A stretch of 54,767 bases of DNA from NCBI GenBank assembly GCA_036396955.1, contig DASWJW010000235.1, positions 1 to 54,767 of the forward strand, given 5' to 3'. The DNA is from Planctomycetota bacterium (lineage in GTDB: Bacteria > Planctomycetota > UBA1135). Positions 1 through 14,535 of this stretch are shown here, in pieces (positions within the stretch are counted from its first letter, which is position 1; every line of letters starts with the position of its first letter). The position numbers and the translations under genes are program-made. The notes under the pieces are model-generated. The model made no database searches and was not told the DNA's origin. It saw only the letters and a list, made by a program, of their open reading frames with translations.

Positions 1-24
1 CCTCCCAATGGGCAGAATGCCCGC

Positions 25-1080
25 ATGAGTGGGGATTCGTCGTACGAGCCGCAGTTGGCGGCGCCGGTCGAGGAGGAGTTCGAGAGGACTCTCCGACCCC
101 GCGACTTCCAGGAATTCCTGGGCCAGGAGGCTCTCCTGGAGCCCCTCCAGGTGATGATCCAGGCCGCGACCGGTCGCGAAGAAGTCCTGGAGCACCTCCT
201 CTTCGCCGGCCAGCCGGGCCTCGGCAAGACCAGCCTCGCGCTCGCCCTTGCCAGTGAGATCGGCCGTCCGCTCAAGATCACCAGCGGCCCGGCGCTCGAG
301 CGCGCCAAGGATCTGGTCGGAATCCTGTCCGGCCTCGAGCGCGGCACGGTGCTCTTCATCGACGAGATCCATCGCTTGCCGCGCGTGGTCGAAGAGTACC
401 TCTACGGCGCCATGGAGCGCTTCCAGCTGGAGTTCACTCTCGACCAGGGCGTGCACGCGCGGCTCCTCAAGCTCGAACTCCAGCCCTTCACGCTGGTCGG
501 CGCGACCACCCGCGAAGCCATGCTCACCGGTGCCTTCCGCTCTCGCTTCGGACATGTCCTGCACTTCGAACCGTATTCGGACGACGCGTTGCAGCGGATC
601 CTCGAACGATCCGCGGGCTTGCTCGGTGTCGCGGCCGATCCTGCCGCCCTCGCCGAACTCGCTAGCCGTTCGCGCGGCGTGCCGCGGATCGCCAACCGCC
701 TGCTGCGCCGCGCCCGCGACGTCGCGCAGGTGGAACAGGCTTCCCGGCTCGACCTCCGCGTGGTCGCGCGCGCGCTCGACCTGCTCGACATCGACGCGCA
801 CGGACTCGAGCGCACCGACCGCCGCCTGCTCGAGGTCCTGGCGCGTTCCGGCGGCCGTCCGCAAGGCCTCAAGACCCTCGCCGTCGCGGTCGGCGAAGCC
901 GAAGACACGCTGGAGGACGTCTACGAACCCTGGTTGATCCGCCAAGGCTGGATCGCACGAACGCCGCAAGGCCGCGTGCTGCAGGACGCCGGCTGGCGAC
1001 TCCTCGGACTCGAGCCGCCCGCCGCCGCCAACGCCTCGGCGGCGACTCTTCCGGGCCTGGACGCCCGGCACGGCGGCTGA
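25..1080 (+). CDS. ruvB: Holliday junction branch migration DNA helicase RuvB
   Basis: Walker A motif GQPGLGKTS, Walker B FIDEIHRL, and RuvB-type N-terminal LRPRDFQEFLGQE. Length of 351 aa is typical. Confidence 0.95.
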   Translation: MSGDSSYEPQLAAPVEEEFERTLRPRDFQEFLGQEALLEPLQVMIQAATGREEVLEHLLFAGQPGLGKTSLALALASEIGRPLKITSGPALERAKDLVGILSGLERGTVLFIDEIHRLPRVVEEYLYGAMERFQLEFTLDQGVHARLLKLELQPFTLVGATTREAMLTGAFRSRFGHVLHFEPYSDDALQRILERSAGLLGVAADPAALAELASRSRGVPRIANRLLRRARDVAQVEQASRLDLRVVARALDLLDIDAHGLERTDRRLLEVLARSGGRPQGLKTLAVAVGEAEDTLEDVYEPWLIRQGWIARTPQGRVLQDAGWRLLGLEPPAAANASAATLPGLDARHGG

Positions 1081-1088
1081 GGTCTTCG

Positions 1089-2300
1089 ATGCGGCTGCGC
1101 ACCCGCCTGTTCTTCTTCCTGGTCCCCCTCGCGCTGCTCTGGAGCGCGAGCGTGTGGCTCGGGGGCGGCGTGGAAGGCGCCGAGCGCGGCAAGCTTGGCG
1201 CGGTCGTGAACCCGACGGTCGCCGTGCGGCTCGAAGAGCACCTGGGCAGCGACGGTGTCGACTTGCGCCTGCGTGGCAGCTGGCGAATGCTGCGCGCCGA
1301 CGGCAAGGTCCTGCACCAAGGCACCGAATTCGAAGGCCGGCTCGCCGTCGACGCCAGCGGCGCTCGCGTCGGCGCGTGGCGGCCGCGGGTCGACCGCTTC
1401 CGCCTGGAGGCCGACGGCGACGCCGCGGTCGGGATCGCCGACCGCTGGTACCGCGGCAAACTGGACGTGCGCGTGCTCAGATCGGGCACGACCGGATTGC
1501 CGAGCGGCCTCGACTTGCGCTTGGAGCTGCCGCTCGAGGACTACGTGGTCGGCGTGGTCTGCGGCGAAATGCCGACCGGCAAGGCCGAGGCCGCCGGGGC
1601 GCTGAGCGCGCAAGCGGTCGCCGCGCGCACCTACGCGCTGTACCGCTTGCGCGCGGGCCGCGAATTCCTGCGCGACGACGCGCGCGACCAGCGCTTCCTC
1701 GGCGTCGATTTCGAGACCGAGGCCGCACGCGTCGCGGTGCGCGAGTCCTTGGGCCAGGTGTTGTTCTGGGACGGCGAGCTGCTGCCCGCTTACTACCACG
1801 CCCAATGCGCCGGCCACACCGCCGATGCCGCGGCGCTCGGCTTCGTGAAACGCGGCATCGCGCCGCTCGCCGGCGTCGATGACCCGGGCTGCCGCGACCC
1901 GTACGGCTGGGAGCAGACCGTTCCCGCCGCGCATCTCGACCGGCTCGCGCGCGAGCACGAACTGGGGACTTGGGTGCAGCGCATCGAGATCCGCGAGCGC
2001 GGCGCCGGCGGCCGCTGCGTCAGCGCGCGCGTGAGCGGCGACCTGCGCATGCAGCACTTCCGCGGCGAGGACTTGCGGCCCTGGCTCGACCTGCCCTCGA
2101 CCGTGTGGCGCGATCTGCTGCCGACCGAGGACGGGTCGCTCACCGTGCGCGGCGCCGGCCGCGGCCACGGAGTCGGCATGTGCCAGGAGGGCGCGCTGCG
2201 CCGCGCGCGCAACGGGATGACGGCCGAGGAAATCCTGGGCCATTACTATCCCGGCGCCGTGCTGCGTTTCCTCCTCGAACCCGGCACCGCGGCGCTTTGA
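1089..2300 (+). CDS. SpoIID/LytB domain-containing protein (secreted)
   Basis: N-terminal signal-like hydrophobic segment. SpoIID-type motifs are present (AQAVAARTYALYR, YYHAQCAGHT, GHGVGMCQEGA). Confidence 0.85.
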   Translation: MRLRTRLFFFLVPLALLWSASVWLGGGVEGAERGKLGAVVNPTVAVRLEEHLGSDGVDLRLRGSWRMLRADGKVLHQGTEFEGRLAVDASGARVGAWRPRVDRFRLEADGDAAVGIADRWYRGKLDVRVLRSGTTGLPSGLDLRLELPLEDYVVGVVCGEMPTGKAEAAGALSAQAVAARTYALYRLRAGREFLRDDARDQRFLGVDFETEAARVAVRESLGQVLFWDGELLPAYYHAQCAGHTADAAALGFVKRGIAPLAGVDDPGCRDPYGWEQTVPAAHLDRLAREHELGTWVQRIEIRERGAGGRCVSARVSGDLRMQHFRGEDLRPWLDLPSTVWRDLLPTEDGSLTVRGAGRGHGVGMCQEGALRRARNGMTAEEILGHYYPGAVLRFLLEPGTAAL

Positions 2301-3490
2301 GTTCCGGTTTCACCCTCCACCTGCCCGCCCCGGCGGCGGGCGCGGCGCTGGGACCGCGGCGCGGCGAGCTGCGCACTCCGCACGGGACCGTGCAGACGCC
2401 CGGATTCATGCCGGTCGCAACCCGCGGCATGCTGCGCGGCATTGCGCCCGACCGCCTCGGCCCTCTGGGCGCGCAGATCCTGCTCGCCAACGCGTTCCAC
2501 CTGTACGCCCGGCCCGGCGTCGAAGTCGTCCGGCAGCTCGGCGGAGTGCACGGCATGCTCGCGTGGCACGGACCGGTGCTCACCGACTCGGGCGGCTTCC
2601 AGGTGTTCAGCCTCGCGGCGCTCGACGACGTCGACGTCGACGGCGTGCGCGTCGACCATCCGGTCCACGGCGGCAAGATCTTCTGGACTCCGCGTCTTGC
2701 GTTCGAAGCCCAGCGCGACCTCGGTCCCGACGTCGCGATGGTGCTGGACGTTTGCCCCGCCGACCCCCAGGCGCGCGGGCCGGTCCAAGCGGCGGTCGAG
2801 CAGACGCTCGCGTGGGCGCGCATCCAGCGCGACCTGCATGCGGAGCGCGGCGGCGCGGACTCCGGGCAAGCGCTGTTCGGCATCGTCCAGGGGGGCGTGT
2901 TCGCCGACCTTCGCGAACGCTGCGCCAAGGAACTCGTGGCGCTCGACTTCGACGGCTACGCGGTCGGCGGAGTCAGCGTGGGCGAAAGCCACGAGCTGAT
3001 GATGACCGCGGTCGAAGCCTCGATTCCGCACCTTCCGGTCGGGAAAGTGCGCTACTTGATGGGGGTCGGCACGCCACGCGACCTGGTGGAAGCCGTCGCG
3101 CGCGGCGTCGATCTCTTCGACTGCGTGTTTCCGACCCGCGCGGGCCGCTTCGGCACCGCGCTGACGTGGGACGGCCGCCTGCACCTGCTCAACGCCCGCC
3201 ACCGCGCCGACACCGCGCCGATCGAGCCCGGCTGTCCGTGTGCCGCTTGCGCCAGCGGCGTGCCGCGCGGCGCGCTCCGCGCGGGCTTCAAGGCCAAGGA
3301 GCTGCTCCCCCCGGTGCTGGTCTCGCTGCACAACCTGCATTTCATCCTCGAACTCATGCGCCGCATCCGTGCCGCCCTCGACGACGGCGGGTTCGAGGCG
3401 CTCCGCGCCCGCGTCGGCGCCGCCTACCCGCCGCGCCATGAAGGGCCGACGCCGGCCGCGCGCGACGAACGCGCTCCCCGCGCGCCCTAG
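2297..3490 (+). CDS. tgt: tRNA-guanine(34) transglycosylase (queuine tRNA-ribosyltransferase)
   Basis: Motifs TPHGTVQTPGFMPV, LANAFHL, TDSGGFQVFSL and the Zn-site region CxCxxC (CPCAAC). An in-frame TTG at 2297 overlaps the upstream stop (TTGA). The part of the tracked ORF upstream of it (from 1970) is R-rich and overlaps the SpoIID gene. Confidence 0.9.
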   Translation: MSSGFTLHLPAPAAGAALGPRRGELRTPHGTVQTPGFMPVATRGMLRGIAPDRLGPLGAQILLANAFHLYARPGVEVVRQLGGVHGMLAWHGPVLTDSGGFQVFSLAALDDVDVDGVRVDHPVHGGKIFWTPRLAFEAQRDLGPDVAMVLDVCPADPQARGPVQAAVEQTLAWARIQRDLHAERGGADSGQALFGIVQGGVFADLRERCAKELVALDFDGYAVGGVSVGESHELMMTAVEASIPHLPVGKVRYLMGVGTPRDLVEAVARGVDLFDCVFPTRAGRFGTALTWDGRLHLLNARHRADTAPIEPGCPCAACASGVPRGALRAGFKAKELLPPVLVSLHNLHFILELMRRIRAALDDGGFEALRARVGAAYPPRHEGPTPAARDERAPRAP

Positions 3491-3497
3491 CCGCAGG

Positions 3498-5279
3498 CTA
3501 TCGGGCCGGCGCCGGCCGGCGCAGCGCGACGACCACGGCGCCGCCGACGCCAAGGCCGATCGCCACCAGCAGGATCGCGATCGACAGCAGCAGGGTCTCT
3601 CCGCGCGTGGCAAAGTCGAAGATCTCGACTGTGAGCGCGCCGAGCGTGTTGAGCACCATGAACACGGCGGGCAACGCCAGCGGCCAGAAATTGCGGCCCG
3701 CCTGCTTGAGATAGACGGTGGCGGTGAGGAGCGCAAGACCGGCGATCAGCTGGTTGGTGCTCCCGAACAGCGTCCACAGCGCGAGCCCGGCCGACACCGT
3801 GCGCGTGCCGCCGGCGCCGTCGGGGACTTGCAGCTCGTAGAACGCGAAGAAGCCGATCGCGGCGGCGGCGGCGCCCGTGGCGAGGAAGCGGTTGCGGAAC
3901 AAGGCCGCCACCGGTGCGAGCCGCGTGCGGGATAGCGATTCGGCGATTTCTTCCACGTTGAAGCGCAGCAGCCGAGTCGCCGAATCCAGCGTGGTCAGCG
4001 CGAAGCTCACCACGACCATCGCCACGAGCGTGACGGCGAGATCGTGCGACACGCCGAGCTCCTCGATGAACGACGCCGCGCCGCGGATGAAGACGCCGAG
4101 CTTGGGTCCGAGCCCTTGCATCGAGCCCCAGTTCAGGTACACCCTGGCCCACGCGTCCTTGCCGCCGAGCGTGGTCGTGCACGCGAGCACGGCCATCAGG
4201 CCGAGCAGCGATTCGCCGATCATGCCGCCGTAGCCGATCGGCCGGGCGTGCGTCTCCTTGTCGAGCTGCCGCGCGGTCGTGCCGCTGGCGACCAGCGAAT
4301 GGAAACCGCTCGCCGCGCCGCAAGCGATGGTGATAAACACGAACGGGAAGATCGGCGGCGCACCGACCGGATCCGGATTGATCGCCGGCGCGTCGAAACT
4401 CGGTCCGATCAGGAAGAAACCGAGATACATGAGCCCCAGCCCCAGTGCGAGCAGCAAGGAGTTGAGGAAATCGCGCGCCTGCAGCAGCAGCCATACCGGC
4501 AGGACCGACGCGGCGTACGCGTAGCCCAGCAGGATCCAGACCCAGGCGGCCTTGCCCGGCCATGCCGAAGCGTCCGCAACGCCGAGAGTCGGCACGCGGT
4601 AGCCCAGGTAGATCACGCCTAGCAGCAGGCCGAAGCCGACCAGCGTCACCGGGCCGAGCGGCTTGCCCTTCACGTACAGGAGCCAGCCGGCTCCCACTGC
4701 CAGGACCATCAGCGCGGCGGACGGCAGCACGACTTCCGGGAAGGAAGTGCTCGCGCCGGCGAGCGTTTCCGGGCCGAATTCCACGAGCGTTGGCGGCAGG
4801 TCCGCCCCCCACGAGAACAGCAGCGAGAGGACTTCGACGAAGACTCCCATCGCGAGCGCGACACCGAAGAAGATCAGCGCGAGGAACAAGCCCTTGGCGA
4901 GCGGGCCGAGCAGGTGCTCGCACAGCGAACCGATCGACTGGCCGCGGTGGCGCGCCGACAGGACCAGCGCCGAGAAGTCGTGGACGCAGCCGATCAGAAG
5001 GGAGCCAAACACGACCCAGAGAAGAGCCGGCAGCCAGCCCCAGAACACCGCGACCGCCGGCCCCAGCATGGGCGCGAGACCGGCGATCGAGGCGAAGTGG
5101 TGCCCGAACAGCACCACCGGCCGGGTCGGCACGAAATCGATGCCGTCCTGGCGCGCATGCGCCGGAGTGACTGCGTCCGGATCGAGCCGGAACACCCGGC
5201 GCGCCAGCCACCCGCCGTAATAGCGGTAGCCGGCGGCGTAGACGCCGAACGCGAGGAGGGCGACGAGGAAAGGCGTCAT
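3498..5279 (-). CDS. cstA: carbon starvation protein A family transporter
   Basis: Polytopic membrane protein. The N-terminal signature YRYYGGWLARRVFRLD...GHHFASIAGLAPMLGP is typical of CstA. Confidence 0.9.
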   Translation of the reverse strand: MTPFLVALLAFGVYAAGYRYYGGWLARRVFRLDPDAVTPAHARQDGIDFVPTRPVVLFGHHFASIAGLAPMLGPAVAVFWGWLPALLWVVFGSLLIGCVHDFSALVLSARHRGQSIGSLCEHLLGPLAKGLFLALIFFGVALAMGVFVEVLSLLFSWGADLPPTLVEFGPETLAGASTSFPEVVLPSAALMVLAVGAGWLLYVKGKPLGPVTLVGFGLLLGVIYLGYRVPTLGVADASAWPGKAAWVWILLGYAYAASVLPVWLLLQARDFLNSLLLALGLGLMYLGFFLIGPSFDAPAINPDPVGAPPIFPFVFITIACGAASGFHSLVASGTTARQLDKETHARPIGYGGMIGESLLGLMAVLACTTTLGGKDAWARVYLNWGSMQGLGPKLGVFIRGAASFIEELGVSHDLAVTLVAMVVVSFALTTLDSATRLLRFNVEEIAESLSRTRLAPVAALFRNRFLATGAAAAAIGFFAFYELQVPDGAGGTRTVSAGLALWTLFGSTNQLIAGLALLTATVYLKQAGRNFWPLALPAVFMVLNTLGALTVEIFDFATRGETLLLSIAILLVAIGLGVGGAVVVALRRPAPAR

Positions 5280-5370
5280 GGTTGCCGTGAGGCAGCCGGC
5301 GCAGTTTGCCCGCGCCCGGACGCACCTTCAAACCGCCGCGCTGGCCGCCTATGCTGGACCGCCGGCCGCC

Positions 5371-6669
5371 ATGGAGTTCCTTCTCGCCGTTCTCGGACTC
5401 GCCCTGGGCACCCTGCTGGGTTACCTGTGGGGCCGCGCCCGCGCCGGCGCCGAGACCGCCGCCGCACGCGAGGCGCTCGCCACTCGCAGCGCCGAACTCG
5501 AGGCGGCCCGACAGGGCGCCGCCGAACGCGAGGCCTTCCTCGCCAGGGCGCGCGAGGATCTCGAGAACGCATTCGGCAACCTCGCGGCCAAGGCCTTGAA
5601 CGCCAACAACGAGGCCTTCCTCGCCCACGCCGAGGAACGGCTCGAGGCCAAGAACAAGCAGAGCACCGGCGAGTTCAAGAAGGACAAGGAAGCGATCGAG
5701 AACCGCCTCAAGGAGATGGGCGAGGCGCTCGTCACGGTGCGCGGCCAGCACAAGTCGCTCGACGACAACCTCAAGTCCTTCGGCGCCGTGGTCAGCGATC
5801 TTGGACGCGAGAGCCATGCGCTCTCCACCGCCTTGCGCGGCAGCAGCCAGGCGCGCGGCAACTGGGGCGAGCTCCATTTGCGCAACCTGATCGAGATCGC
5901 CGGCATGAGCGAGCACTGCGATTTCGTCGAGCAGCGCGGCACCGGCGAACTGCGCCCCGACATGGTGGTGCGGCTGTCGGGCGGCGACGGCATTCCCATC
6001 GACGCCAAGGCGCCGCTCGCCGCGTACCTGGACGGGCTCGAGGCCGCGGACCCCGCCGCGCAGCGCGAACTGTTCAAGAAGCACGCCACCGAGTTGAAGA
6101 AGCACGTCCGCGATCTCGAGAAGCGCGAGTACCACGGCGGCACGGCGATCGCCGGCTCGATCGACTTCACCGTGCTCTACCTGCCCGGCGAACCGATCCT
6201 CGCGGCGGCCCTCCAATACGACCGCGAATTGCAGGAATACGCGCTCTCGCGGCGCATCCTGCTCGCCACCCCGGTGACCCTGTTCGCTCTGCTCAAGACG
6301 GTCGGCATCTACTGGCGGCAGCAGGCCGTCGCCGAGAACGCCGAGAAGGTCTTTGAAGTTGCCCGCGTCTTCTACGACCGCGTGCGGGTGTTCGCCGACC
6401 ACCTCGGCAAGGTGGGCCGGGGTCTCGACCTCGCCGTGACCAGCTACAACCGCGCCGTCGGAAGCTTCGACCAGATGGTGATCCCGCAAGGCCGCCGGAT
6501 CGAAGGCTTGAAGGCGATCGAGAGCGCCAAGACGCTCGTGGCCCCGGCCAGCGTCGAGGCGGCCGTGCGCAACGCGGCTCCGCGCGTCGCCGACGCGGCG
6601 GCGCTGACCGAAAGCGAGGGCGAGGGCGACGGCGCGGCCGGCGGCACCCTCGAGTTCGAAGCCGGCTAG
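5371..6669 (+). CDS. rmuC: DNA recombination protein RmuC
   Basis: N-terminal TM helix, a long coiled coil, then an RmuC nuclease-like core (GNWGELHLRNLIE, DFTVLYLPGE). ATG at 5371 chosen because it directly precedes the TM helix. Confidence 0.88.
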   Translation: MEFLLAVLGLALGTLLGYLWGRARAGAETAAAREALATRSAELEAARQGAAEREAFLARAREDLENAFGNLAAKALNANNEAFLAHAEERLEAKNKQSTGEFKKDKEAIENRLKEMGEALVTVRGQHKSLDDNLKSFGAVVSDLGRESHALSTALRGSSQARGNWGELHLRNLIEIAGMSEHCDFVEQRGTGELRPDMVVRLSGGDGIPIDAKAPLAAYLDGLEAADPAAQRELFKKHATELKKHVRDLEKREYHGGTAIAGSIDFTVLYLPGEPILAAALQYDRELQEYALSRRILLATPVTLFALLKTVGIYWRQQAVAENAEKVFEVARVFYDRVRVFADHLGKVGRGLDLAVTSYNRAVGSFDQMVIPQGRRIEGLKAIESAKTLVAPASVEAAVRNAAPRVADAAALTESEGEGDGAAGGTLEFEAG

Positions 6670-6673
6670 GGTC

Positions 6674-8038
6674 TCAGCGCCGGCTGCGCGGCGGGACGGC
6701 TTCTCCGTTCACCGGTACGCGGATCCTGATGTCGCGCCGCAGATAGACGCATTCGCCGTGGACGTCTTCGCAGACGTAGTAGGTGGCGTAGCCGCGCAAT
6801 TCGGCGATCCCCGACGGCGCGTCGGCGGGCACGCGCAGCTCGAGTTCGAGCAGGCGGGTTTCGCTGCTGGTGGCCGCGTCCTCGGGCAGCGGAGCGGAGA
6901 GTTCCGAAGCCGACTGCGTCCATCCTTCCGGAGCCCCGACCCAGGCTTGCAGCAGCCCCGCATCGTTGCTCCAGTGCACGCGTGCGCCCGCATTGGGCTC
7001 GAAGTACAGATACACGCGCACGGCCTGCCCGGGACGCACCGGGGTCGGCGCGAGCACGGGCGTGAATGCGACCAGACGGCGGTCGTCGCGCGGCAGGCGG
7101 CCTTCGGGGTCGGGGCCGGCCAAGGCGGGCGCCGCCGCGAAGTCGCGCACCGCCTGCGCAAGTTCCGAACCCTCGGGTTCGGCGCCGAGCGGATGCGGGG
7201 CTTCGCCGCGCGCGGAGATCTCCGCGCGGGCCGTCGGCACCCAGTCGTAGAACGGATACGGCTTGTCGAGAGTCGGCCCGTACTGCTGCAGACGCCGCCT
7301 CCAGATGTAGTTCGAAGGATCGAGGTCGAGCGCCCTGGTCCACGCCGCGACGGCGCGCTGGAAGTCGCTCGCGCGGCGCCCGTCGGAATCATGGCGGGCG
7401 CGGAAGGCGCAGCCGAGGCGGAACCAATTCAACGCGTTCTTCCGATCGCTGCTGGCGAGATAGCCGAAGCGCTCCACCGCCTGGTCCCACTCGCCAGCCA
7501 GGAAGTGGCCGACGGCGACGTCCTCGTGCGGCGGCGCTGCGGCCGCGGCGGGCGGCGGATACTCGGTGGCGAGGAACTCCCCTGTCAACCACTCCATGGT
7601 CGGGCGTTCGCTCCGGAGCACGCCGTGCTCGTCGACCGCCCAGAACAGCGGCACGGCGGACACGCCGATCCGGTTGAGCGAATCGACCAGGATCGGGAAG
7701 TCCATCTGCTTCCACTGCAGGAACAGCGCGCAGCGTTCGGGGTGCTGCTCCTGGATCAGGCCGACCATTTGCAGGTCGCCGCGCTCGCGGAGTTCTCTCG
7801 TCTGCTCGTACCAGACCGGTACGTGGCGGCGGCAACCCGCTCACCACGAAGCGAATTGCACCAGCAGGAGCTTGCGCCCCCGGAAGGCCGCAAGGCTCGC
7901 ACGCTCCTCCGTACCGAACCGAGGAAACTCGAAGCCCGGAAACGGCGCGCCGACCTGCGGCACGAGCGCCGCGGCCGGCTCCTGGGCGGCCGCCGCCTGC
8001 GGAGCGGCCAGCAGTAGGAGAAGAAACGCCGCGACCAT
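6674..8038 (-). CDS. predicted selenoprotein: secreted TlpA/redoxin-like thioredoxin-fold domain (UxxC) fused to TPR-like and DsbD-alpha-like C-terminal modules, requiring UGA(7841..7843) readthrough as Sec
   Basis: ORFs 7841..8038 and 6674..7768 are in the same frame, separated only by TGA. The joined translation reads ...FRGRKLLLVQFASW-U-AGCRRHVPVWYEQ..., the canonical FWASWCxxC context. A signal peptide is present only in the upstream piece. Confidence 0.7.
7807..7823 (-). promoter_or_regulatory. candidate bacterial SECIS apical hairpin (CGUACC-GGUCU-GGUACG)
   Basis: Perfect 6-bp stem with loop GGUCU. The stem starts 17 nt after the UGA and the loop 23 nt after it. The loop resembles the GGUC(U) apical loop of E. 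coli fdhF SECIS. Confidence 0.45.
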
Positions 8039-8061
8039 GCAGCGAGTCTAGCGGCGGCGCG

Positions 8062-9595
8062 CTAGCGGGGCGTCTTGGGCGGCTTGGCCCACCAACTCCG
8101 GAAGTCGCGCTCGAAATCGGCCCCGAATGCTGCCGACACGAGTTCCTGGACGCGGGCCGGCGCCGGCTCGTAGCGGCCCCCGCCTTGGGCGCGGGAGTCC
8201 TCCGCCATGCCGGCGAGCAGCCGCGCAAAGCCTTCCCGGTCCGCTTCCAGGCCATAGACTGCGAAGGCGAACGCGAAGCGCGCGAGGTCTTCGTCGAAAG
8301 GCCGCGCCGGGTAGGCGTAGAGATCGGGAAGCGGCCGCTGGTTCTTGGCGACCAGCCTGGAGGCGTCGTTCCGCCACCCGCCGTGCGCGAGCACCGAGAC
8401 GAAAGAGTCGCGGTACCAGTTGGCCCAGATCTCCCCGAAGGCCCGCTCTTCGCCCGCGCAGGCCACGCCTTCGGCAAGCCACAGCGGCAGGCTGCCGAAG
8501 CGACGGCTCAACTCCTGGTGCACCAATCGCGGCGCAGAGCGCACGGTAAAGATCCGGATCGGCGATCATCAGCGCGAGCAGCGGCGGCCCGCCGGTGACC
8601 TCTCGCGAATCGGCACCGAGGGCCTTCTCGAGGTGACCGAAGACGAGGCCGACCTTCTTGAACGCGTCCCGTCCTTCCCGGGCGCGGAAATCGGTGAGGA
8701 TGCGGAAGCGGCCGCCGCGGTCGTCGTAGCTCTCGATCCCGCGGACTTCCAGAGTCGCCGCGATCGCTTCGAGGACCACCGCATTGCGCGCACTGGGACC
8801 GCCTTCGGTGCCGACCCCTCCCCACCAGGCCGCCGCGCGGTTCAAGAAATCGTGGCCGAGCACGCTCTTGAAGACTTCGGTCTGCAACGCGGCACCGGGC
8901 TCCCAGGCTTCCTCCGCGCCGATGCACGGACGTCTCGAGGCGAGGGTCGCGATCAATTCGCCCAGGCGTGCCGGCTCGGCCGCGACCAGCCACAGGCCGA
9001 GCGCGAATTGACCATGGGCTCGCGACTGCTCGAAACGCGTGCCGCTCTCCTTGCTCAAGCCCGCGATGTCGAAGCCGTTCGTGTGCACCTGGAGCGCCGC
9101 GCCCGAGCGCCAGCCCTGGTAGTACGCCGCGTCGAGGTCGCCCCCCGGGTGGAAGTTGAAGCCATAGACGCCGCCGGCGAGTTCGTCCTGGAGGGCGTAG
9201 CCAAGAGCTTCGCCGATCCAGAACGGCAATCGGCCGTAGCGGCGCACCAATTCGAGCGGCCAGGCCATGTGCGCGAGCTGGTATTCGGAACCCTTCACCA
9301 GCGCGGTGCCGGCGTCGTGGCGCACCACGGCTAGCAAGGGCGCCCAGTGCTGGATCCGCGGGTACGTCGCCGCGGGAACCCGCGAAAACCAGGTGCCGCG
9401 GGCCGCGAGAGCCGGGTCCACGCTGGCGTAGACACACCAGCGGCCGTCGTCGGCTTGGTGCAAGGTCCAGTTCCGCTCCTCGGCAACGGCATCGAGGAAT
9501 CCCGCGGGAGGACCCTGAGCGACGAGCGAAGTTGCACACGCGACACCAAGGGTCGCGATTGCCAGGGAGCGGCGGATCATGAAGGCGGCGATCAT
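8062..9595 (-). pseudogene. secreted protein with two tandem degenerate MA-peptidase-like (DUF1570-like) repeats, reading frame broken near 8527..8565
   Basis: Frame A (9595 downward) looks protein-like until ...LMIADPDLYRALCAA, then turns into an R-rich tail. Frame B (8544..8062) continues with RLVHQELSRRFGSLPLWLAEGV, which parallels the first repeat LELVRRYGRLPFWIGEAL. Confidence 0.5.
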
Positions 9596-9818
9596 GTGCG
9601 GACGAGCCGGTCTCGAAACAGGGAGTGGGCCGCCATGGTGGACCAGCGCGCATCAACGGGGATTGGGACGGCCTCCTCTAGTCCCTTCTTTGAGAATCCA
9701 TCACGCCTATTTCGGCGGGAAATGCTCGCAACGTTGCGCAAGCCGCAGGACTCGGCGCAAGCGCGGGGTTCCTGCGCGCCGAACGGCGTTTTGCGGCGCG
9801 CTCGCGCGGAACGGAAGG

Positions 9819-9853
9819 CCGCGGCGCATCCCATGTCACGGGATGCGCCGCGG
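9819..9853 (-). terminator. perfect 14-bp stem / 7-nt loop hairpin downstream of the anti-sigma/vWA gene
   Basis: CCGCGGCGCATCCC-atgtcac-GGGATGCGCCGCGG, starting 22 nt after the stop at 9875. The following tract on the minus strand (CCUUCCGUUCC) is only weakly U-rich. Confidence 0.5.
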
Positions 9854-9874
9854 TAACCACGCCCGAGGCGCGGG

Positions 9875-12649
9875 CTAGCGGTCTTGGAGCATCAAGTCCC
9901 GGATCCGCCGTTCCAGTTCGTCGTTGCGCTTGCGCAACTCTTCGAGCGCGTGGCCGGTGTCGACCTTTGCTTCGATCAGCTCGGATTCGGCCTCGAGCAG
10001 GCGCATGCGCCGCGCTTCTTCGACCAGCAAGGCCAGCTCGCCTTCGGGCGGCAACGCGGCGATCGCGCGCGCGCTCTTGTGGATGAGTTCGGCGAGTTCG
10101 CGCACGGTCGCGTCTCCCGGCCGCTCGCGCCTCAGGCGGTCGGCTTGTTCTTCCAGCGCGCGGTAGGAATCGCCCCGCGCCCAGAAGCTGCGCCGCAGGA
10201 CTTCGGAGAACTGCGCCGCCACGGCGGAGACCCGGAACGCCGCCGGGGAGGCCTCGAACGAGCCCTTGCGTTCGGCGAGGGTCAGCGCCCGCTCCATCTC
10301 CACGGCTTCGGTCTCGCCGTCGGGCTTCCAGCGCAAGCGCACGGTCGCCAGCGGCGCCGGCCGGGTATCGGCCTTGGCGAGCCCGCCGATCTCCTCGATC
10401 TCGTAGAGGGCCACGACTTCGTGGCCGGCGCCGACTTCGCCCGCATCGACGGCGTCGTTGCGGAAGTCGGCGTGCTCGAGCGAGCGGTTCTCGTAGCCGA
10501 GCAGGCGCCAGCGCAGCACGGTCGACGGATCGAACTCCACCTGGATCTTCACGTCGCGGGCGACGGTCTGCAGCGTTCCGGTGAAGCGGTCCACGAAAAC
10601 CCGCTTGGCTTCGTCGAAATCGTCGACGTAATGGCAGGAGCCGTTGCCCTTGTCGGCGATCTGCTCCAGGAAGACGTCGTTGTGGTTGCCCATGCCGACG
10701 CCGATGGCGGTGAGGTCGACCTGCCGTTCGCTGAACGCCCGGACGCGCTCCAGGATGAGCTGCTGGTCGGTCTCGCCGGTGTTGGCGACCCCGTCCGAGC
10801 ACAACACGATGCGGTTGACCCCGCCCTCCACGAAGCCGCGCTCGATCAAGTCGTAGCCGAGCACCAGGCCGGCTTCGGCGTTGGTCGAACCGCCGTGGGT
10901 CAGGCTGCGCACGGCCTCGCGGATCACCCAGCGCTCGCGGCCGGGAGTCGGCTCGAGCACCAGCTTGGCGTCGCCGGCGAAAGTGACGATGCCGACGTGG
11001 TCGTCGTCGCGCAGCTGGTCGACCAGCAGCTCGAGCGAACGCTTGACCAATTCGAGACGGTTCTGCTTGCCCATCGAGCCGCTGGAATCGATCACGAACA
11101 CCAGGTTGAGCGGCTTGCGGGACTCGCGGTCGACTTCGCGGGCCTTGAGCCCGACCTTGAGCAGGCCGACGTTGCCGCCGTGGCCGAAGCCGCTGGGCGC
11201 GTATTCGAGCTGGATGGCGAAGTCGCCATCGTCGGGAGCCTTCAGCCCGCTGTCGAAGTAGTTCACGAACTCCTCGGTGCGGACCGCCGCCTTGGGCGGC
11301 AGGAAGCCCTGCTGCAAGTAGTTGCGCACCAGCGGGTAGGACGCCGTGTCCACGTCGGCGGCGAAGGTGCTCATGGCGTCGCTGCGCGAGTTCACGAACG
11401 CGTTGTCGCCGTAGTAGCGGAAGAACATGTCCCGCGGCGTTTCCGCAGGCCGGCGGTGCAGGTAGTCGTGGATCACGCGCTCGCCGCGGTGCCGGCGGCC
11501 GTAACCGTCGACCACGATCCAGCCGGGTTCCGACCCGCCCCCGCCGATCGTCAGATCGTCGTCGCCGAGGCCACCGAAGAATCCAAAGCGGCCCGCGTCC
11601 AGATCGAGCGACTCCATGCCCCAGACACCGGTGTCGGTCCGCGTCGTCGCATCGGGTTGTTCGAAGTTCAGGGTCACGCCGAGCACCGCTTCGCCATCGC
11701 CGGACCGCGTGACATCGCGAGAGCGGAGCTGCTGTTGCAGGTCGGCTACGCCCTTCGGCGCGGCCGACGCGGGAGCCGCGGCGGGAGCCGCAGGCACGAA
11801 GCCGGCGCGCCGTTCTTGCTCCGCGAGGTGCGGAAAGCCCCGCGTGATTTCCGCGGGTGAACCCGTGGCCCCCGCAGCAGCGGAGTCGCCCGGCGTGCCG
11901 GGCAAGCTGCGCCGCGTCGGTTCCTGCCCCGCCGGAGCGACGTGCAGGACGCTCAGGTTCTCGGCTTCGGACCGCGAGGGGAGCACCGACAGCGTGTCCA
12001 ATGCGCGCGCGGGCAGCAACTTGTCCATGGGGATCGCGTTGCCCGCGACGTCCTGCCCCAACTTGTATTCCAGAACGGTTCCACCGAGAGCGATCGCGGC
12101 GTCCATGCTCGCATCCTTCAAGGTGACTCCGAACTCCGCGAAGGGCTCGCCGGCGGCGAAAGCCTCGCGGTCGAGACCGCCCGCGCCCGCGGGGCTCTGC
12201 GGCCGCGCGTTGGTTTCTTCGCTCACTTCGGGCCCGAGCTGGTCGTGCAGGCCGAGCCGGTCGGAGCCGAAGTAGTCGACGGCGAGCAGCAGCGCCGCGG
12301 CGATTCCGGCGAGCGTGGTCGCTCGGCCCCAGATCCGCGACCTTGCCGGCGGCGTTGCCAACAGCGTGTCGCGCGGCACCTGCGCTCCAGCGGCCGGGCT
12401 CGCGGCAGCCGCGGCGGCGGCTTGGCGCAGGGCCGAGCGCCGGTCGGCGCCGAGCGCGCCACCGGGCAGCGCCGCCTCGCGGAACACGGCGAGGGTCGCG
12501 CGCAGCTCTTCGCAGCGTGCGCGCAAGCCGGCGTCATCGGCGAGCGCGGCCTCGATCTCGGCGCAGCCGGCCGGGTCGAGCTCGTCGAGCAGGTAATCGG
12601 TGAGGCGCTCGTCGATCGAGCGCGGGCGGGTTTCGTCGTAGTTTTCCAT
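9875..12649 (-). CDS. anti-sigma factor fused to a periplasmic von Willebrand factor A (YfbK-like, vWA + DUF3520-type) domain
   Basis: N-terminal anti-sigma-type region (DERLTDYLLDELDPAGCAEIEAAL), one TM helix (TTLAGIAAALLLAV), and a vWA MIDAS motif VFVIDSSGSM...GGSTN...CSDG. ATG at 12649 lies 14 nt after the sigma gene stop. Confidence 0.85.
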   Translation of the reverse strand: MENYDETRPRSIDERLTDYLLDELDPAGCAEIEAALADDAGLRARCEELRATLAVFREAALPGGALGADRRSALRQAAAAAAASPAAGAQVPRDTLLATPPARSRIWGRATTLAGIAAALLLAVDYFGSDRLGLHDQLGPEVSEETNARPQSPAGAGGLDREAFAAGEPFAEFGVTLKDASMDAAIALGGTVLEYKLGQDVAGNAIPMDKLLPARALDTLSVLPSRSEAENLSVLHVAPAGQEPTRRSLPGTPGDSAAAGATGSPAEITRGFPHLAEQERRAGFVPAAPAAAPASAAPKGVADLQQQLRSRDVTRSGDGEAVLGVTLNFEQPDATTRTDTGVWGMESLDLDAGRFGFFGGLGDDDLTIGGGGSEPGWIVVDGYGRRHRGERVIHDYLHRRPAETPRDMFFRYYGDNAFVNSRSDAMSTFAADVDTASYPLVRNYLQQGFLPPKAAVRTEEFVNYFDSGLKAPDDGDFAIQLEYAPSGFGHGGNVGLLKVGLKAREVDRESRKPLNLVFVIDSSGSMGKQNRLELVKRSLELLVDQLRDDDHVGIVTFAGDAKLVLEPTPGRERWVIREAVRSLTHGGSTNAEAGLVLGYDLIERGFVEGGVNRIVLCSDGVANTGETDQQLILERVRAFSERQVDLTAIGVGMGNHNDVFLEQIADKGNGSCHYVDDFDEAKRVFVDRFTGTLQTVARDVKIQVEFDPSTVLRWRLLGYENRSLEHADFRNDAVDAGEVGAGHEVVALYEIEEIGGLAKADTRPAPLATVRLRWKPDGETEAVEMERALTLAERKGSFEASPAAFRVSAVAAQFSEVLRRSFWARGDSYRALEEQADRLRRERPGDATVRELAELIHKSARAIAALPPEGELALLVEEARRMRLLEAESELIEAKVDTGHALEELRKRNDELERRIRDLMLQDR

Positions 12650-12663
12650 TTCCAGGCTTCCCT

Positions 12664-13239
12664 TCAGGCCAGCAGGCCGGCGGCGCGGAGTCGGTCGGTG
12701 AGCGCGTTCATGCCCGTGTGCACGAGCCAGCCGATGTAGCCGGACTTGAGCCCGGTCACTTCGGCGATCTGGGCGTAACTCAAACCCTCCTGGACCTTGA
12801 GTCGCAGGACCTCCCGCTGTTTGGCGGGAAGCCGTTCGAGCTCGCGGCCCACGAGGGCGTGCATCTCCCGCGTCTCCGCGGGGTGTTCCGCCGTTATGTC
12901 GATCTCGTCGCGAGAGACTTTCTCCCGACGCTGCCGTTCGCGCTGTTCCGATTTCATGTTGTCGTAGGCTAGGTTGCGGCACACCCGGAACAGCCAGGCG
13001 CCGATGGCGCCGTTGCCGGCCGGATCCGGGGGTGACTTCGCGAGACGGAGCAGGGTTTCCTGGACGGCGTCTTCCGCGGCCGCGGCGTTGCGAAGGGTCG
13101 CCCGCGCAAAACGCAGCAACGCTCCTTCGTAACGTTCGACCAGCGACTCGAAGGCGGCCAGGTCCCCGCCACGGAAGCGGGTGACCAGGTCGCCGTCGGG
13201 AGGCTCTGAAGTCCCTTCCATCCGGCTCACTGCAGACAA
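12664..13239 (-). CDS. ECF (sigma-70 family, group IV) RNA polymerase sigma factor
   Basis: Region 2 (FESLVERYEGALLRFA, VQETLLRL) and region 4 (LPAKQREVLRLKVQEGLSYAQIAEVTG). The TTG start at 13239 is preceded by AGGAGG with an 8-nt spacer. Confidence 0.9.
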   Translation of the reverse strand: MSAVSRMEGTSEPPDGDLVTRFRGGDLAAFESLVERYEGALLRFARATLRNAAAAEDAVQETLLRLAKSPPDPAGNGAIGAWLFRVCRNLAYDNMKSEQRERQRREKVSRDEIDITAEHPAETREMHALVGRELERLPAKQREVLRLKVQEGLSYAQIAEVTGLKSGYIGWLVHTGMNALTDRLRAAGLLA

Positions 13240-13302
13240 ACGACGGGCCTCCTGGGCTCTTTGGGAATTCCTGTTGCGACCCGCGGCCGGGCCGCCGGGC
13301 GT

Positions 13303-14535
13303 CTATGCGACGCCGTGGCGACGCAGCACGGCGTCGCGGTAGTCCAGGATACGCCGCACGAACGCGCGCTTTTCCAGGTAGCTGCCCGGAAAGAACGAGC
13401 GCTTGAAGCCGTAGAGGATCAGATCGCCGACCTGCTTGGCGTCCAGACGGAAGGTCTGGGTCGCCAGCTCCAGTTCGCGCGTGGCCGTGGTGCGCGAGAC
13501 CAGGCGGTTGTCGGTGCAGATCGCGGTCGAGAGCTTCTCGCGGAGCATGCGCCGGAACGGGTGCCGTTCGAGCGTGCCCAGCTCGGGAAGGGTCTGCAAG
13601 TTGGAGCTCAAGCAGACCTCGAGCGTGATCCGGCGGTCGCCGATGTAGCGGACGAGCTCGGCGACGTAACGACGGCGGTTCTTGATGCGGCGGTCGCGGA
13701 TCCGCCCGGCGCTGAACAGCCAGGTGCCGTGGCCGATACGCTCGGCGTGGCAGTCGGTGATCGCCTGGAAGATCGACTCGGGGCCGTAGTCCTCGCCCGC
13801 GTGCACGGTCTTGCCGAGGAAGGCCTGGTGGGCGAGCCGGTACGCGCGGGAGTGGTCGGCCGCCGGGTAGCCGTGCTCCATGCCGGCAAGGTCGACGCCC
13901 ACCACGGGTACCCCGGCTTGGTCGCGCGCCCGCACGCTGGCGTGCACGAGCGTCTCGCTGGCGATTCCGAACACCTGTTCGCGCGGCAGGTCGGCGAGCG
14001 CGTGGGAGAGGTCGCCATAGGTGCGAGAGAACACCGGTTCGAAGAAGCGCAGCGCGCACACCAGGATGCCGGCTCGAAACGGCGGTTCCGTACCGTCTTG
14101 GACGGCCTTGCGGCGGTTGAAGGCGCTCTCGGCGCGTTCGATGCCGCGCCCGACCGCCTTCAGCACCGCATCGATGCCGAAGCCTGGCCGCGAGTGCAGT
14201 TGCGGCGCGAAACGGATCTCCATGTAGCGCACGCCTTCGGCCTGCGCGTCGCGGCACAGCTCCCAGGTGGTGCGCTCGAGCGCTTCATGGTCCTGAAGCA
14301 CCGCGCAAGTGTAGGCGAAACCCTTGAGATACTCGCCGAGGCTCCGGTAGCGGCGTTTGAAGACCGTGCGGTGCAAGCCCTCGACCGTGTTTGCCGGCAA
14401 GCGCACGCGCCGTGTATGCGCCAACTCGATCAAGGTCTCGGGGCGCAGCGAGCCGTCCAAATGGACGTGCAGGTCGCTCTTGGGCAAGTCCGCGAGCAGT
14501 TCGGGCGCGAGGAAAGGACGGCGCGCGGCGGGCAC
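13303..14535 (-). CDS. add: adenosine deaminase family protein
   Basis: Metal-binding signature SDLHVHLDGSL, later VHAGE, HGT and the C-terminal TDN motif. Confidence 0.88.
   Translation of the reverse strand: MPAARRPFLAPELLADLPKSDLHVHLDGSLRPETLIELAHTRRVRLPANTVEGLHRTVFKRRYRSLGEYLKGFAYTCAVLQDHEALERTTWELCRDAQAEGVRYMEIRFAPQLHSRPGFGIDAVLKAVGRGIERAESAFNRRKAVQDGTEPPFRAGILVCALRFFEPVFSRTYGDLSHALADLPREQVFGIASETLVHASVRARDQAGVPVVGVDLAGMEHGYPAADHSRAYRLAHQAFLGKTVHAGEDYGPESIFQAITDCHAERIGHGTWLFSAGRIRDRRIKNRRRYVAELVRYIGDRRITLEVCLSSNLQTLPELGTLERHPFRRMLREKLSTAICTDNRLVSRTTATRELELATQTFRLDAKQVGDLILYGFKRSFFPGSYLEKRAFVRRILDYRDAVLRRHGVA

Follow-up and report, generated by a model that had tools for sequence, protein, structure and literature searches.

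Selenoproteins of the thioredoxin fold in which selenocysteine (Sec, U) occupies the first position of a UxxC motif are an established class and the commonest kind of selenoprotein in bacteria. Here, we describe a predicted member of this class that is encoded on the minus strand of contig DASWJW010000235.1, part of a metagenome-assembled genome (MAG) of a Planctomycetota bacterium. The entire contig (54,767 nucleotides, 54.8 kb) was analysed and is referred to below as the window. In GenBank, the gene appears as a pair of entries for hypothetical proteins, one of 65 aa (VGC54_12245) and one of 364 aa (VGC54_12240). A sequence-only reading of the window had proposed that these are the two parts of one gene, interrupted by an in-frame UGA codon at the first Cys of a TlpA-type CxxC motif. 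Our analysis leads to a similar view: from the comparisons described below, we estimate the probability that this is a single gene with a genuine Sec codon, encoding an exported selenoprotein of 454 residues, to be approximately 0.92.

Relationship to described selenoproteins and thioredoxin-fold proteins

A 2026 catalogue (PMC13188914) includes TlpA-like (cd02966), Redoxin (PF08534) and Prx-like (PF00578) families among the UxxC selenoproteins. The catalogued UxxC selenoproteins (Zhang et al.) and the window product belong to a common fold class and to common Pfam families, and both carry UxxC with Sec in the first position. They also have in common the recoding mechanism, with a selenocysteine insertion sequence (SECIS) located just past the UGA codon. 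Compared by description only, they differ in architecture, because the catalogue mentions no extension composed of a tetratricopeptide repeat (TPR) region and a beta-sandwich, whereas the window product has both. Another difference concerns Cys forms. Cys homologs are plentiful in the catalogued families, as in GOS Prx-like 3 (68 Sec versus 2,608 Cys sequences) and in the Sargasso family, for which the entry is 'Widespread', whereas no Cys ortholog of the window family was found in the searches described below. The strings ASWUAGCR, IQEQHP and RRRIQQYGP do not occur in the portion of the GOS supplementary sequences that was examined.

NCBIfam release 20 contains no model for the window family. 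The best match is to NF041054, a selenoprotein model named 'ResA-like WAxxUGC motif-containing protein' that also describes a ResA-like fold with Sec. However, the window product scores 59 bits where 300 are required, the match covers only residues 32–141 and leaves the C-terminal 300 residues uncovered, and the motif of the model is U-G-C, in contrast to the W-U-A-G-C (UxxC) of the window product. Membership in NF041054 was rejected on the basis of the score and the motif. TlpA of Bradyrhizobium, ResA of Bacillus subtilis and CcmG/DsbE have an N-terminal export signal or anchor, to which the probable signal peptide of the window product would correspond. They also resemble the window product in having a thioredoxin fold, and their W-C-x-x-C aligns with W-U-A-G-C, but they contain Cys instead of Sec and are single-domain proteins of ~140–220 residues. 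The scores of the window product against the corresponding NCBIfam equivalog/subfamily models fall far below the cutoffs (25.9 versus 230 for TlpA, 26.8 versus 170 for ResA and 16.3 versus 123 for DsbE). By these scores, the window product is a protein of related fold and not an ortholog of TlpA, ResA or DsbE. Those proteins are known to act on apocytochrome c, ScoI and CoxB, and nothing observed here connects the window family with such substrates. The window product is a new, or at least an unannotated, predicted UxxC thioredoxin-fold selenoprotein that is set apart from the families in the catalogue by description.

A single reading frame with a conserved UGA codon

Translation of the minus strand from 8038 to 6674 yields one frame of 455 codons, the sole internal stop of which is the TGA at 7843..7841; the frame closes at a second TGA (6676..6674). 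The two annotated open reading frames (ORFs), 7841..8038 and 6674..7768, lie in this common frame with no other stop between them, exactly as had been proposed. Reading through the internal stop gives a product of 454 residues, with the sequence FASW-[UGA]-AGCRRHVPVWYEQ around the stop. The coordinates of the gene and its features are summarized in Table 1. In a scan of the window for in-frame TGAs with no fewer than 45 stop-free codons on either side, both flanks bearing the coding signature of the genome, which is a high third-position GC content (GC3), a single site was found, 7841..7843. Because this is the sole coding-flanked TGA in the window and is also present in orthologous loci, its occurrence is not attributable to chance.

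Table 1. Positions of the predicted selenoprotein gene and its features in the window
Feature	Position	Strand	Basis
Complete predicted selenoprotein gene, 454 codons including Sec66, and terminal TGA (6674..6676)	6674..8038	minus	Single frame with one internal TGA
UGA codon for predicted U66, which opens the W-U-A-G-C redox motif	7841..7843	minus	TGA in 78/78 loci and in L001–L003; opposite the first Cys of WCxxC
Apical hairpin of putative bacterial SECIS, CGUACC-GGUCU-GGUACG	7807..7823 (loop 7813..7817)	minus	Pairing in the family and synonymous-site conservation
Extended predicted stem-loop bearing the apical hairpin	7787..7840	minus	Minimum free energy –20.5 kcal/mol, folded from the UGA onward
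Probable signal peptide, MVAAFLLLLLAAPQAAAA (cleavage site inferred)	7985..8038	minus	Reading of the sequence; signal-peptide-like N-termini typical in orthologs
TlpA/redoxin-type thioredoxin-fold domain, aa 28–139	7622..7957	minus	Pfam and PDB sequence matches
Helical TPR-like region, aa ~174–276	7211..7519	minus	AlphaFold2 model and TPR Pfam families
C-terminal Ig-like beta-sandwich, aa ~323–443	6710..7072	minus	AlphaFold2 models

A search with the joined protein retrieved 983 relatives. The best 120 of them cover ~71–84% of the query with lengths of 320–420 residues, and none of these 120 has been named a selenoprotein by any source. The start codons of the database entries vary and are located just past the position of CxxC (MHVPGWH.., MPGWH.., MQLVGL.., MDWPIL..). 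They often fall inside a conserved HVPGWH peptide and differ between genomes, a pattern that is produced when a gene caller restarts after a stop. Each of the three contigs identified by exact protein match (L001–L003) contains a small ORF upstream, and reading through its stop, which is TGA, yields FASW*AGCR.

A scan of GTDB with one genome per species showed relatives to be encoded in at least 405 stretches, and the best 80 of these loci were compared. They span Planctomycetota, Acidobacteriota, Gemmatimonadota, Verrucomicrobiota, Poribacteria, Neomarinimicrobiota and others; 78 were assessable, one being cut by the contig end and one frameshifted. The codon for the second residue of W-U-x-G-C is TGA in all 78 assessable loci and in the three further contigs, which derive from independent assemblies, and TAA, TAG, TGC or TGT was found at this codon in none of the 78. 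In addition, 1.84 billion cluster representatives were searched exhaustively with a profile, which yielded 450 clusters (50% identity) at E ≤ 1e-30. Among the representatives of the 150 best clusters, all but two begin within the first ~16 residues of the entry, the exceptions being P0255, which is full length, and P0239, which has a garbled N-terminus. Nearly all of the 150 share one point of truncation and have been deposited in this shortened form, as 'hypothetical', 'TPR' or 'TlpA family' proteins. An orphan ORF of 60–110 residues that ends in TGA is present upstream at every locus examined. With non-conserved starts and the same small TGA-ended ORF upstream, the homologs are not genuine pairs of genes, a situation that the sequence-only reading had named as adverse to its proposal.

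Two loci from long-read MAGs contain additional interruptions, namely a frameshift in the family gene of L030 (~5800–6000) and, in that of L042 (upstream of 6001), a stop codon that breaks the frame within the N-terminal part. Assembly indels, not biology, are the probable cause of both.

The sequence immediately past the stop, xGCRxHVPGWH, is conserved across phyla in the best GTDB loci. The mean entropies at codon positions 1, 2 and 3 are 0.65, 0.32 and 1.28 over the 30 nt that precede the UGA, compared with 0.49, 0.42 and 1.38 at +3 to +17 past it. This periodicity on both sides of the UGA indicates that the protein sequence is under purifying selection both before and after the stop.

The active site and the search for Cys forms

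When Cys was placed at the stop, residues 28–139 of the window product matched two Pfam families above their cutoffs, AhpC-TSA with 32.8 bits (cutoff 26) and Redoxin with 31.3 bits (cutoff 26.6). Therefore, the redoxin domain spans the stop. As the sequence-only reading had argued, neither of the two pieces is sensible alone; neither half would be a complete thioredoxin fold. The AhpC-TSA match reflects the shared fold and not a peroxiredoxin identity. The peroxidatic Cys or Sec of peroxiredoxins lies in a PxxxT/SxxC context, not in WCxxC, and identification of the window product as a peroxiredoxin was rejected because FASW-U-AGC lacks T/S-x-x-U.

In a sequence search of PDB with the position masked as X, ASWCPYCR, ATWCPPCR and ASWCGVCR of TlpA/ResA/DsbE-type proteins were aligned opposite ASWxAGCR; the proteins aligned to the masked product were 3hdc, 3kcm, 4nmu, 3kh7 and 1jfu. 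The first Cys of WCxxC in these solved structures falls on the masked residue, which places the UGA at the position of the nucleophilic Cys in the TlpA/ResA layout. The expectation that Cys homologs would align with the UGA holds for the solved TlpA/ResA/DsbE-type proteins but failed among orthologs, where no such homolog was found in the 78 loci or the 150 best cluster representatives. A word-indexed search for full-length Cys forms with the N-terminal 90 residues was uninformative, returning only the 65-residue ORF of the window.

P0255 (481 aa), the only full-length entry in the 150 best clusters, contains FASSSASSR in place of FASWUAGCR and also lacks both of the C-terminal cysteines that are found in other family members (YALYTVKRVDTDSSLY). 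From its sequence, P0255 resembles a paralog that is redox-dead. That UxxC and the C-terminal Cys pair have been lost together in this single case hints that the two redox sites are coupled.

A putative SECIS hairpin past the UGA codon

The sequence-only reading had pointed to 7780..7843 as the region in which a bacterial SECIS should be sought. A hairpin of this type, conserved at synonymous sites, indeed lies within this region. It has a 6-bp stem that starts 17 nt past the UGA and a loop that starts with GG at a distance of 23 nt from the UGA, and it is located inside the sequence coding for the conserved peptide H-V-P-V/G-W-Y/H. The consensus of the family downstream of the UGA is CACGUGCC-CGGGU-GGCACG. 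Third-position entropy is 0.1–0.8 bits at +20 to +35, versus 1.2–1.8 elsewhere in the same sequences, a decrease that exceeds what amino acid conservation accounts for. Because the other third positions vary freely, codon bias is an unlikely cause.

RNAalifold predicted a 5-bp core when applied to the family. In the 6-bp stem, 97.4% of the alignment cells form standard pairs, and this value fell to 17–61% when the 3' partner was shifted by 1–3 columns. Six cells are changed on both sides of the stem, and none of 500 shuffles matched the observed score. The window itself is a compensatory case, with an A-U pair (GUA...UAC) at a place where G-C (GUG...CAC) is usual in the family. The lower part of the extended stem is not conserved in the family, and only the apical stem was retained by RNAalifold.

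The consensus model of the bacterial SECIS (PMC13188914) is limited to a loop of 3–9 nt, an upper stem of 4–16 bp, a G within the two opening positions of the loop, a distance of 16–37 nt from the UGA to the loop and a minimum free energy of –7.5 kcal/mol or lower. The window hairpin lies within these limits, with a loop of 5 nt, a stem of 6 bp, GG at the start of the loop, a UGA–loop distance of 23 nt and a minimum free energy of –20.5 kcal/mol for the extended structure or –8.3 kcal/mol for the hairpin with its flanks. The SECIS elements of Escherichia coli fdhF and fdnG are also stem-loops located right past the UGA in the coding sequence, with a small apical loop that opens with G followed by G/U. 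They differ from the window hairpin, which has a different stem sequence, its loop at 23 nt from the UGA and no evident bulged U. The loop of the window, GGUCU, resembles the apical GGUC of fdhF, a similarity that may serve as a lead rather than as a test.

Linkage to Sec machinery in other genomes

In three phyla, the orthologous gene is located within ~3 kb of genes for Sec machinery. The most complete example is the Phycisphaerales MAG OFTM8 (JAJDDM010000035.1, locus L040), in which 8–7137 constitutes a selenium island with all genes on one strand in the order selD, selB, selA, tRNA-Sec, a deiodinase-like gene and the family gene. In this island, selB and selA score 383 bits (TIGR00475) and 483 bits (TIGR00474), respectively, selD is cut by the end of the locus, tRNA-Sec is located at 4344–4439, and the Sec codon of the family gene is at 5923. 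The deiodinase-like gene has its own in-frame TGA at 4833, in the context KRPVILFFGSYT-U-PPF (FGSYT-U-PPF). In a verrucomicrobial locus (L077), selB is directly upstream of the family gene, and in an acidobacterial locus (L017), selA (526 bits) lies 3 kb upstream.

Alternative explanations

Several observations weigh against assigning a Sec codon to the window gene. On the 54.8-kb contig, selA, selB, selD and tRNA-Sec were not found with ARAGORN, Rfam and Pfam; the Pfam scan for Sec machinery covered the 30 GC3-supported ORFs of the window, and the contig is part of the MAG. A Cys ortholog is absent among the 78 loci and the 150 best cluster representatives, so that the pairing of Sec with Cys is seen only at the level of the superfamily. 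The hairpin matched no Rfam family, SECIS families included, even at E ≤ 10. Furthermore, its stem is short (5–6 bp), and the covariation term from RNAalifold is only –0.14 kcal/mol; covariation is thin because the stem is short and nearly invariant. Finally, folding of 7850..7775, which includes 6 nt upstream of the UGA, favours another hairpin that holds the UGA. This alternative, GUGGUGA-GCGG-GUUG-CCGC-CGCCAC (7841..7850 with 7822..7833), is the minimum free energy fold when the six upstream nucleotides are included and sequesters the UGA. As a SECIS, the UGA-containing hairpin was set aside in favour of the structure supported by the family.

The locus has been split into a 65-residue secreted peptide ending at a true TGA and a downstream protein starting at the ATG at 7768, not only in the NCBI annotation but also by other gene callers, and an ATG is indeed present at that position. 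We nevertheless regard two separate genes as very unlikely: the 24 codons between the TGA and this ATG are conserved as protein across phyla with the entropy pattern of coding sequence, the called starts vary by genome and often fall within HVPGWH, and the Pfam redoxin domain spans the stop. Still less probable, to the point of being negligible, is a pseudogene or a sequencing or assembly error in which a TGC or TGT codon for Cys has turned into TGA in the window MAG. Such an error could be imagined in view of the likely frameshift in the next gene upstream on the contig, but TGA is present in all 78 loci and in three contigs from independent assemblies, without a single TGC or TGT, and the flanking sequence is under purifying selection.

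Readthrough of the UGA without Sec, either under a reassigned code (Trp or Gly) or by near-cognate Trp or Cys insertion at a hairpin-stimulated leaky stop, would be compatible with the lack of Sec machinery on the contig and with the general capacity of downstream hairpins to stimulate readthrough. However, no other stop codon serves as an ordinary terminator in the window as often as TGA, which closes 19 of 34 well-supported ORFs and also ends the family gene itself, and this excludes a reassigned genetic code. The UGA also occupies the position of the catalytic nucleophile, at which neither Trp nor Gly would be active, the hairpin conforms to the SECIS model of the SelB type, and the gene is linked to selD, selB, selA and tRNA-Sec in other genomes. 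We therefore consider non-Sec readthrough highly improbable and prefer the interpretation of a single gene in which the UGA specifies Sec.

Protein architecture and proposed function

Full lengths in the family are mostly ~455–490 residues. The N-terminus of the window product is hydrophobic, but its n-region contains no basic residue; the N-termini of orthologs are signal-peptide-like by sequence, and lipobox-like motifs occur in several of them. In a confident AlphaFold2 model covering residues 67–454 (pLDDT 92.7, pTM 0.90), the remainder of the thioredoxin fold is followed by a helical region, and a beta-sandwich makes up the C-terminus. TPR families of Pfam matched 59 of 59 family members, and NPCBM_assoc/NEW3 matched 19 of 59. 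The near-invariant motif YIWRRR(L/I)QQYGP..KPYPFYDW (7241..7309) is located within the TPR-like region, and the near-invariant motif YIWRRRIQQYGPRLDKPYPFYDW comes after the TPR helices. In the C-terminal domain, C423 and C430 form a C-x6-C pair (6749..6772) that flanks the last beta-hairpin, and both columns are invariant or nearly so.

The C-terminal domain was also modelled alone (pLDDT 93.6), and the matches listed from the two Foldseek searches were generic Ig-like, NPC2-like and glycosidase-accessory/NEW3-like sandwiches with TM-scores of 0.49 or less. A DsbD-alpha-like redox module, suggested by the C-x6-C pair across a hairpin, was considered for this domain and rejected, the Cys pair being the only similarity. 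In addition, PF11412 (DsbD_N) is not among the 25 families listed of the 38 that matched the 59 members (E ≤ 1), and no DsbD entry is among the 50 matches listed from either Foldseek search.

For Sec insertion, export, catalytic chemistry, the substrate and the role of C423/C430, we infer the following course. When a ribosome reaches the UGA at 7843..7841, the mRNA hairpin 17–34 nt downstream would recruit SelB-GTP carrying Sec-tRNA(Sec), and Sec would be inserted at UGA66 in place of termination. The terminal TGA (6676..6674), which has no such hairpin, would act as an ordinary stop. These decoding steps are taken from the established SelB/SECIS mechanism of bacteria. The product would then act outside the cytoplasm. 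By analogy with proteins of the same fold, its function is most likely that of an extracytoplasmic thiol:disulfide oxidoreductase, in which the target of attack by Sec66 would be a disulfide of the substrate or a different oxidized form of sulfur. The intermediate would be resolved by Cys69 as a selenenylsulfide, and the TPR and beta-sandwich domains may bind a partner.

A more far-reaching interpretation is that these proteins form a three-domain exported family that is new to the catalogues and NCBI models, essentially obligately dependent on Sec and widespread in four phyla (Acidobacteriota, Planctomycetota, Gemmatimonadota and Verrucomicrobiota), and that its C-x6-C pair constitutes an intramolecular relay with the selenenylsulfide. 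The relay is hinted at by P0255, which has lost both UxxC and the pair. We offer this combined interpretation tentatively and consider it rather doubtful as a whole.

Implications and gene neighbourhood

The family is routinely mis-split, and a model with a Sec flag would repair the truncated entries, a correction that would reach hundreds of species. Such a model would also provide an additional marker of selenium use for phyla dominated by uncultured bacteria of soil, sediment and groundwater. Because the mechanism and the protein class are both well established, the conceptual advance is modest. Nevertheless, a family that never substitutes Cys for Sec would be a useful case for studying the advantage of selenium over sulfur in an extracytoplasmic oxidoreductase, and the near-invariant SECIS-type hairpin inside HVPGWH would be a natural example of one sequence constrained both as RNA and as protein.

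The region 5278..14257 of the window contains, in this order, a giant VWA/YfbK-like ORF, a protein of unknown function, the predicted selenoprotein gene and, on the opposite strand, rmuC. This gene order is shared with L002, L005 and L006, which are all close Planctomycetota relatives. The VWA/YfbK protein, the 515-residue protein and RmuC were therefore discarded as clues to function, being confined to close relatives, and no family-wide partner emerged. The gene directly upstream of the predicted selenoprotein gene (8048..9595, minus strand) has no Pfam or NCBIfam match, and its ortholog in L002 is a single ORF of 629 residues. In a tblastn search with this ortholog, residues 131–430 were matched in frame –2 (9394..8498) and residues 471–626 in frame –3 (8535..8074), which indicates that the gene in the window is frameshifted near 8498–8535, through an assembly error, decay or a programmed event. 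A weaker second tblastn match in the same gene suggests the presence of an internal repeat.

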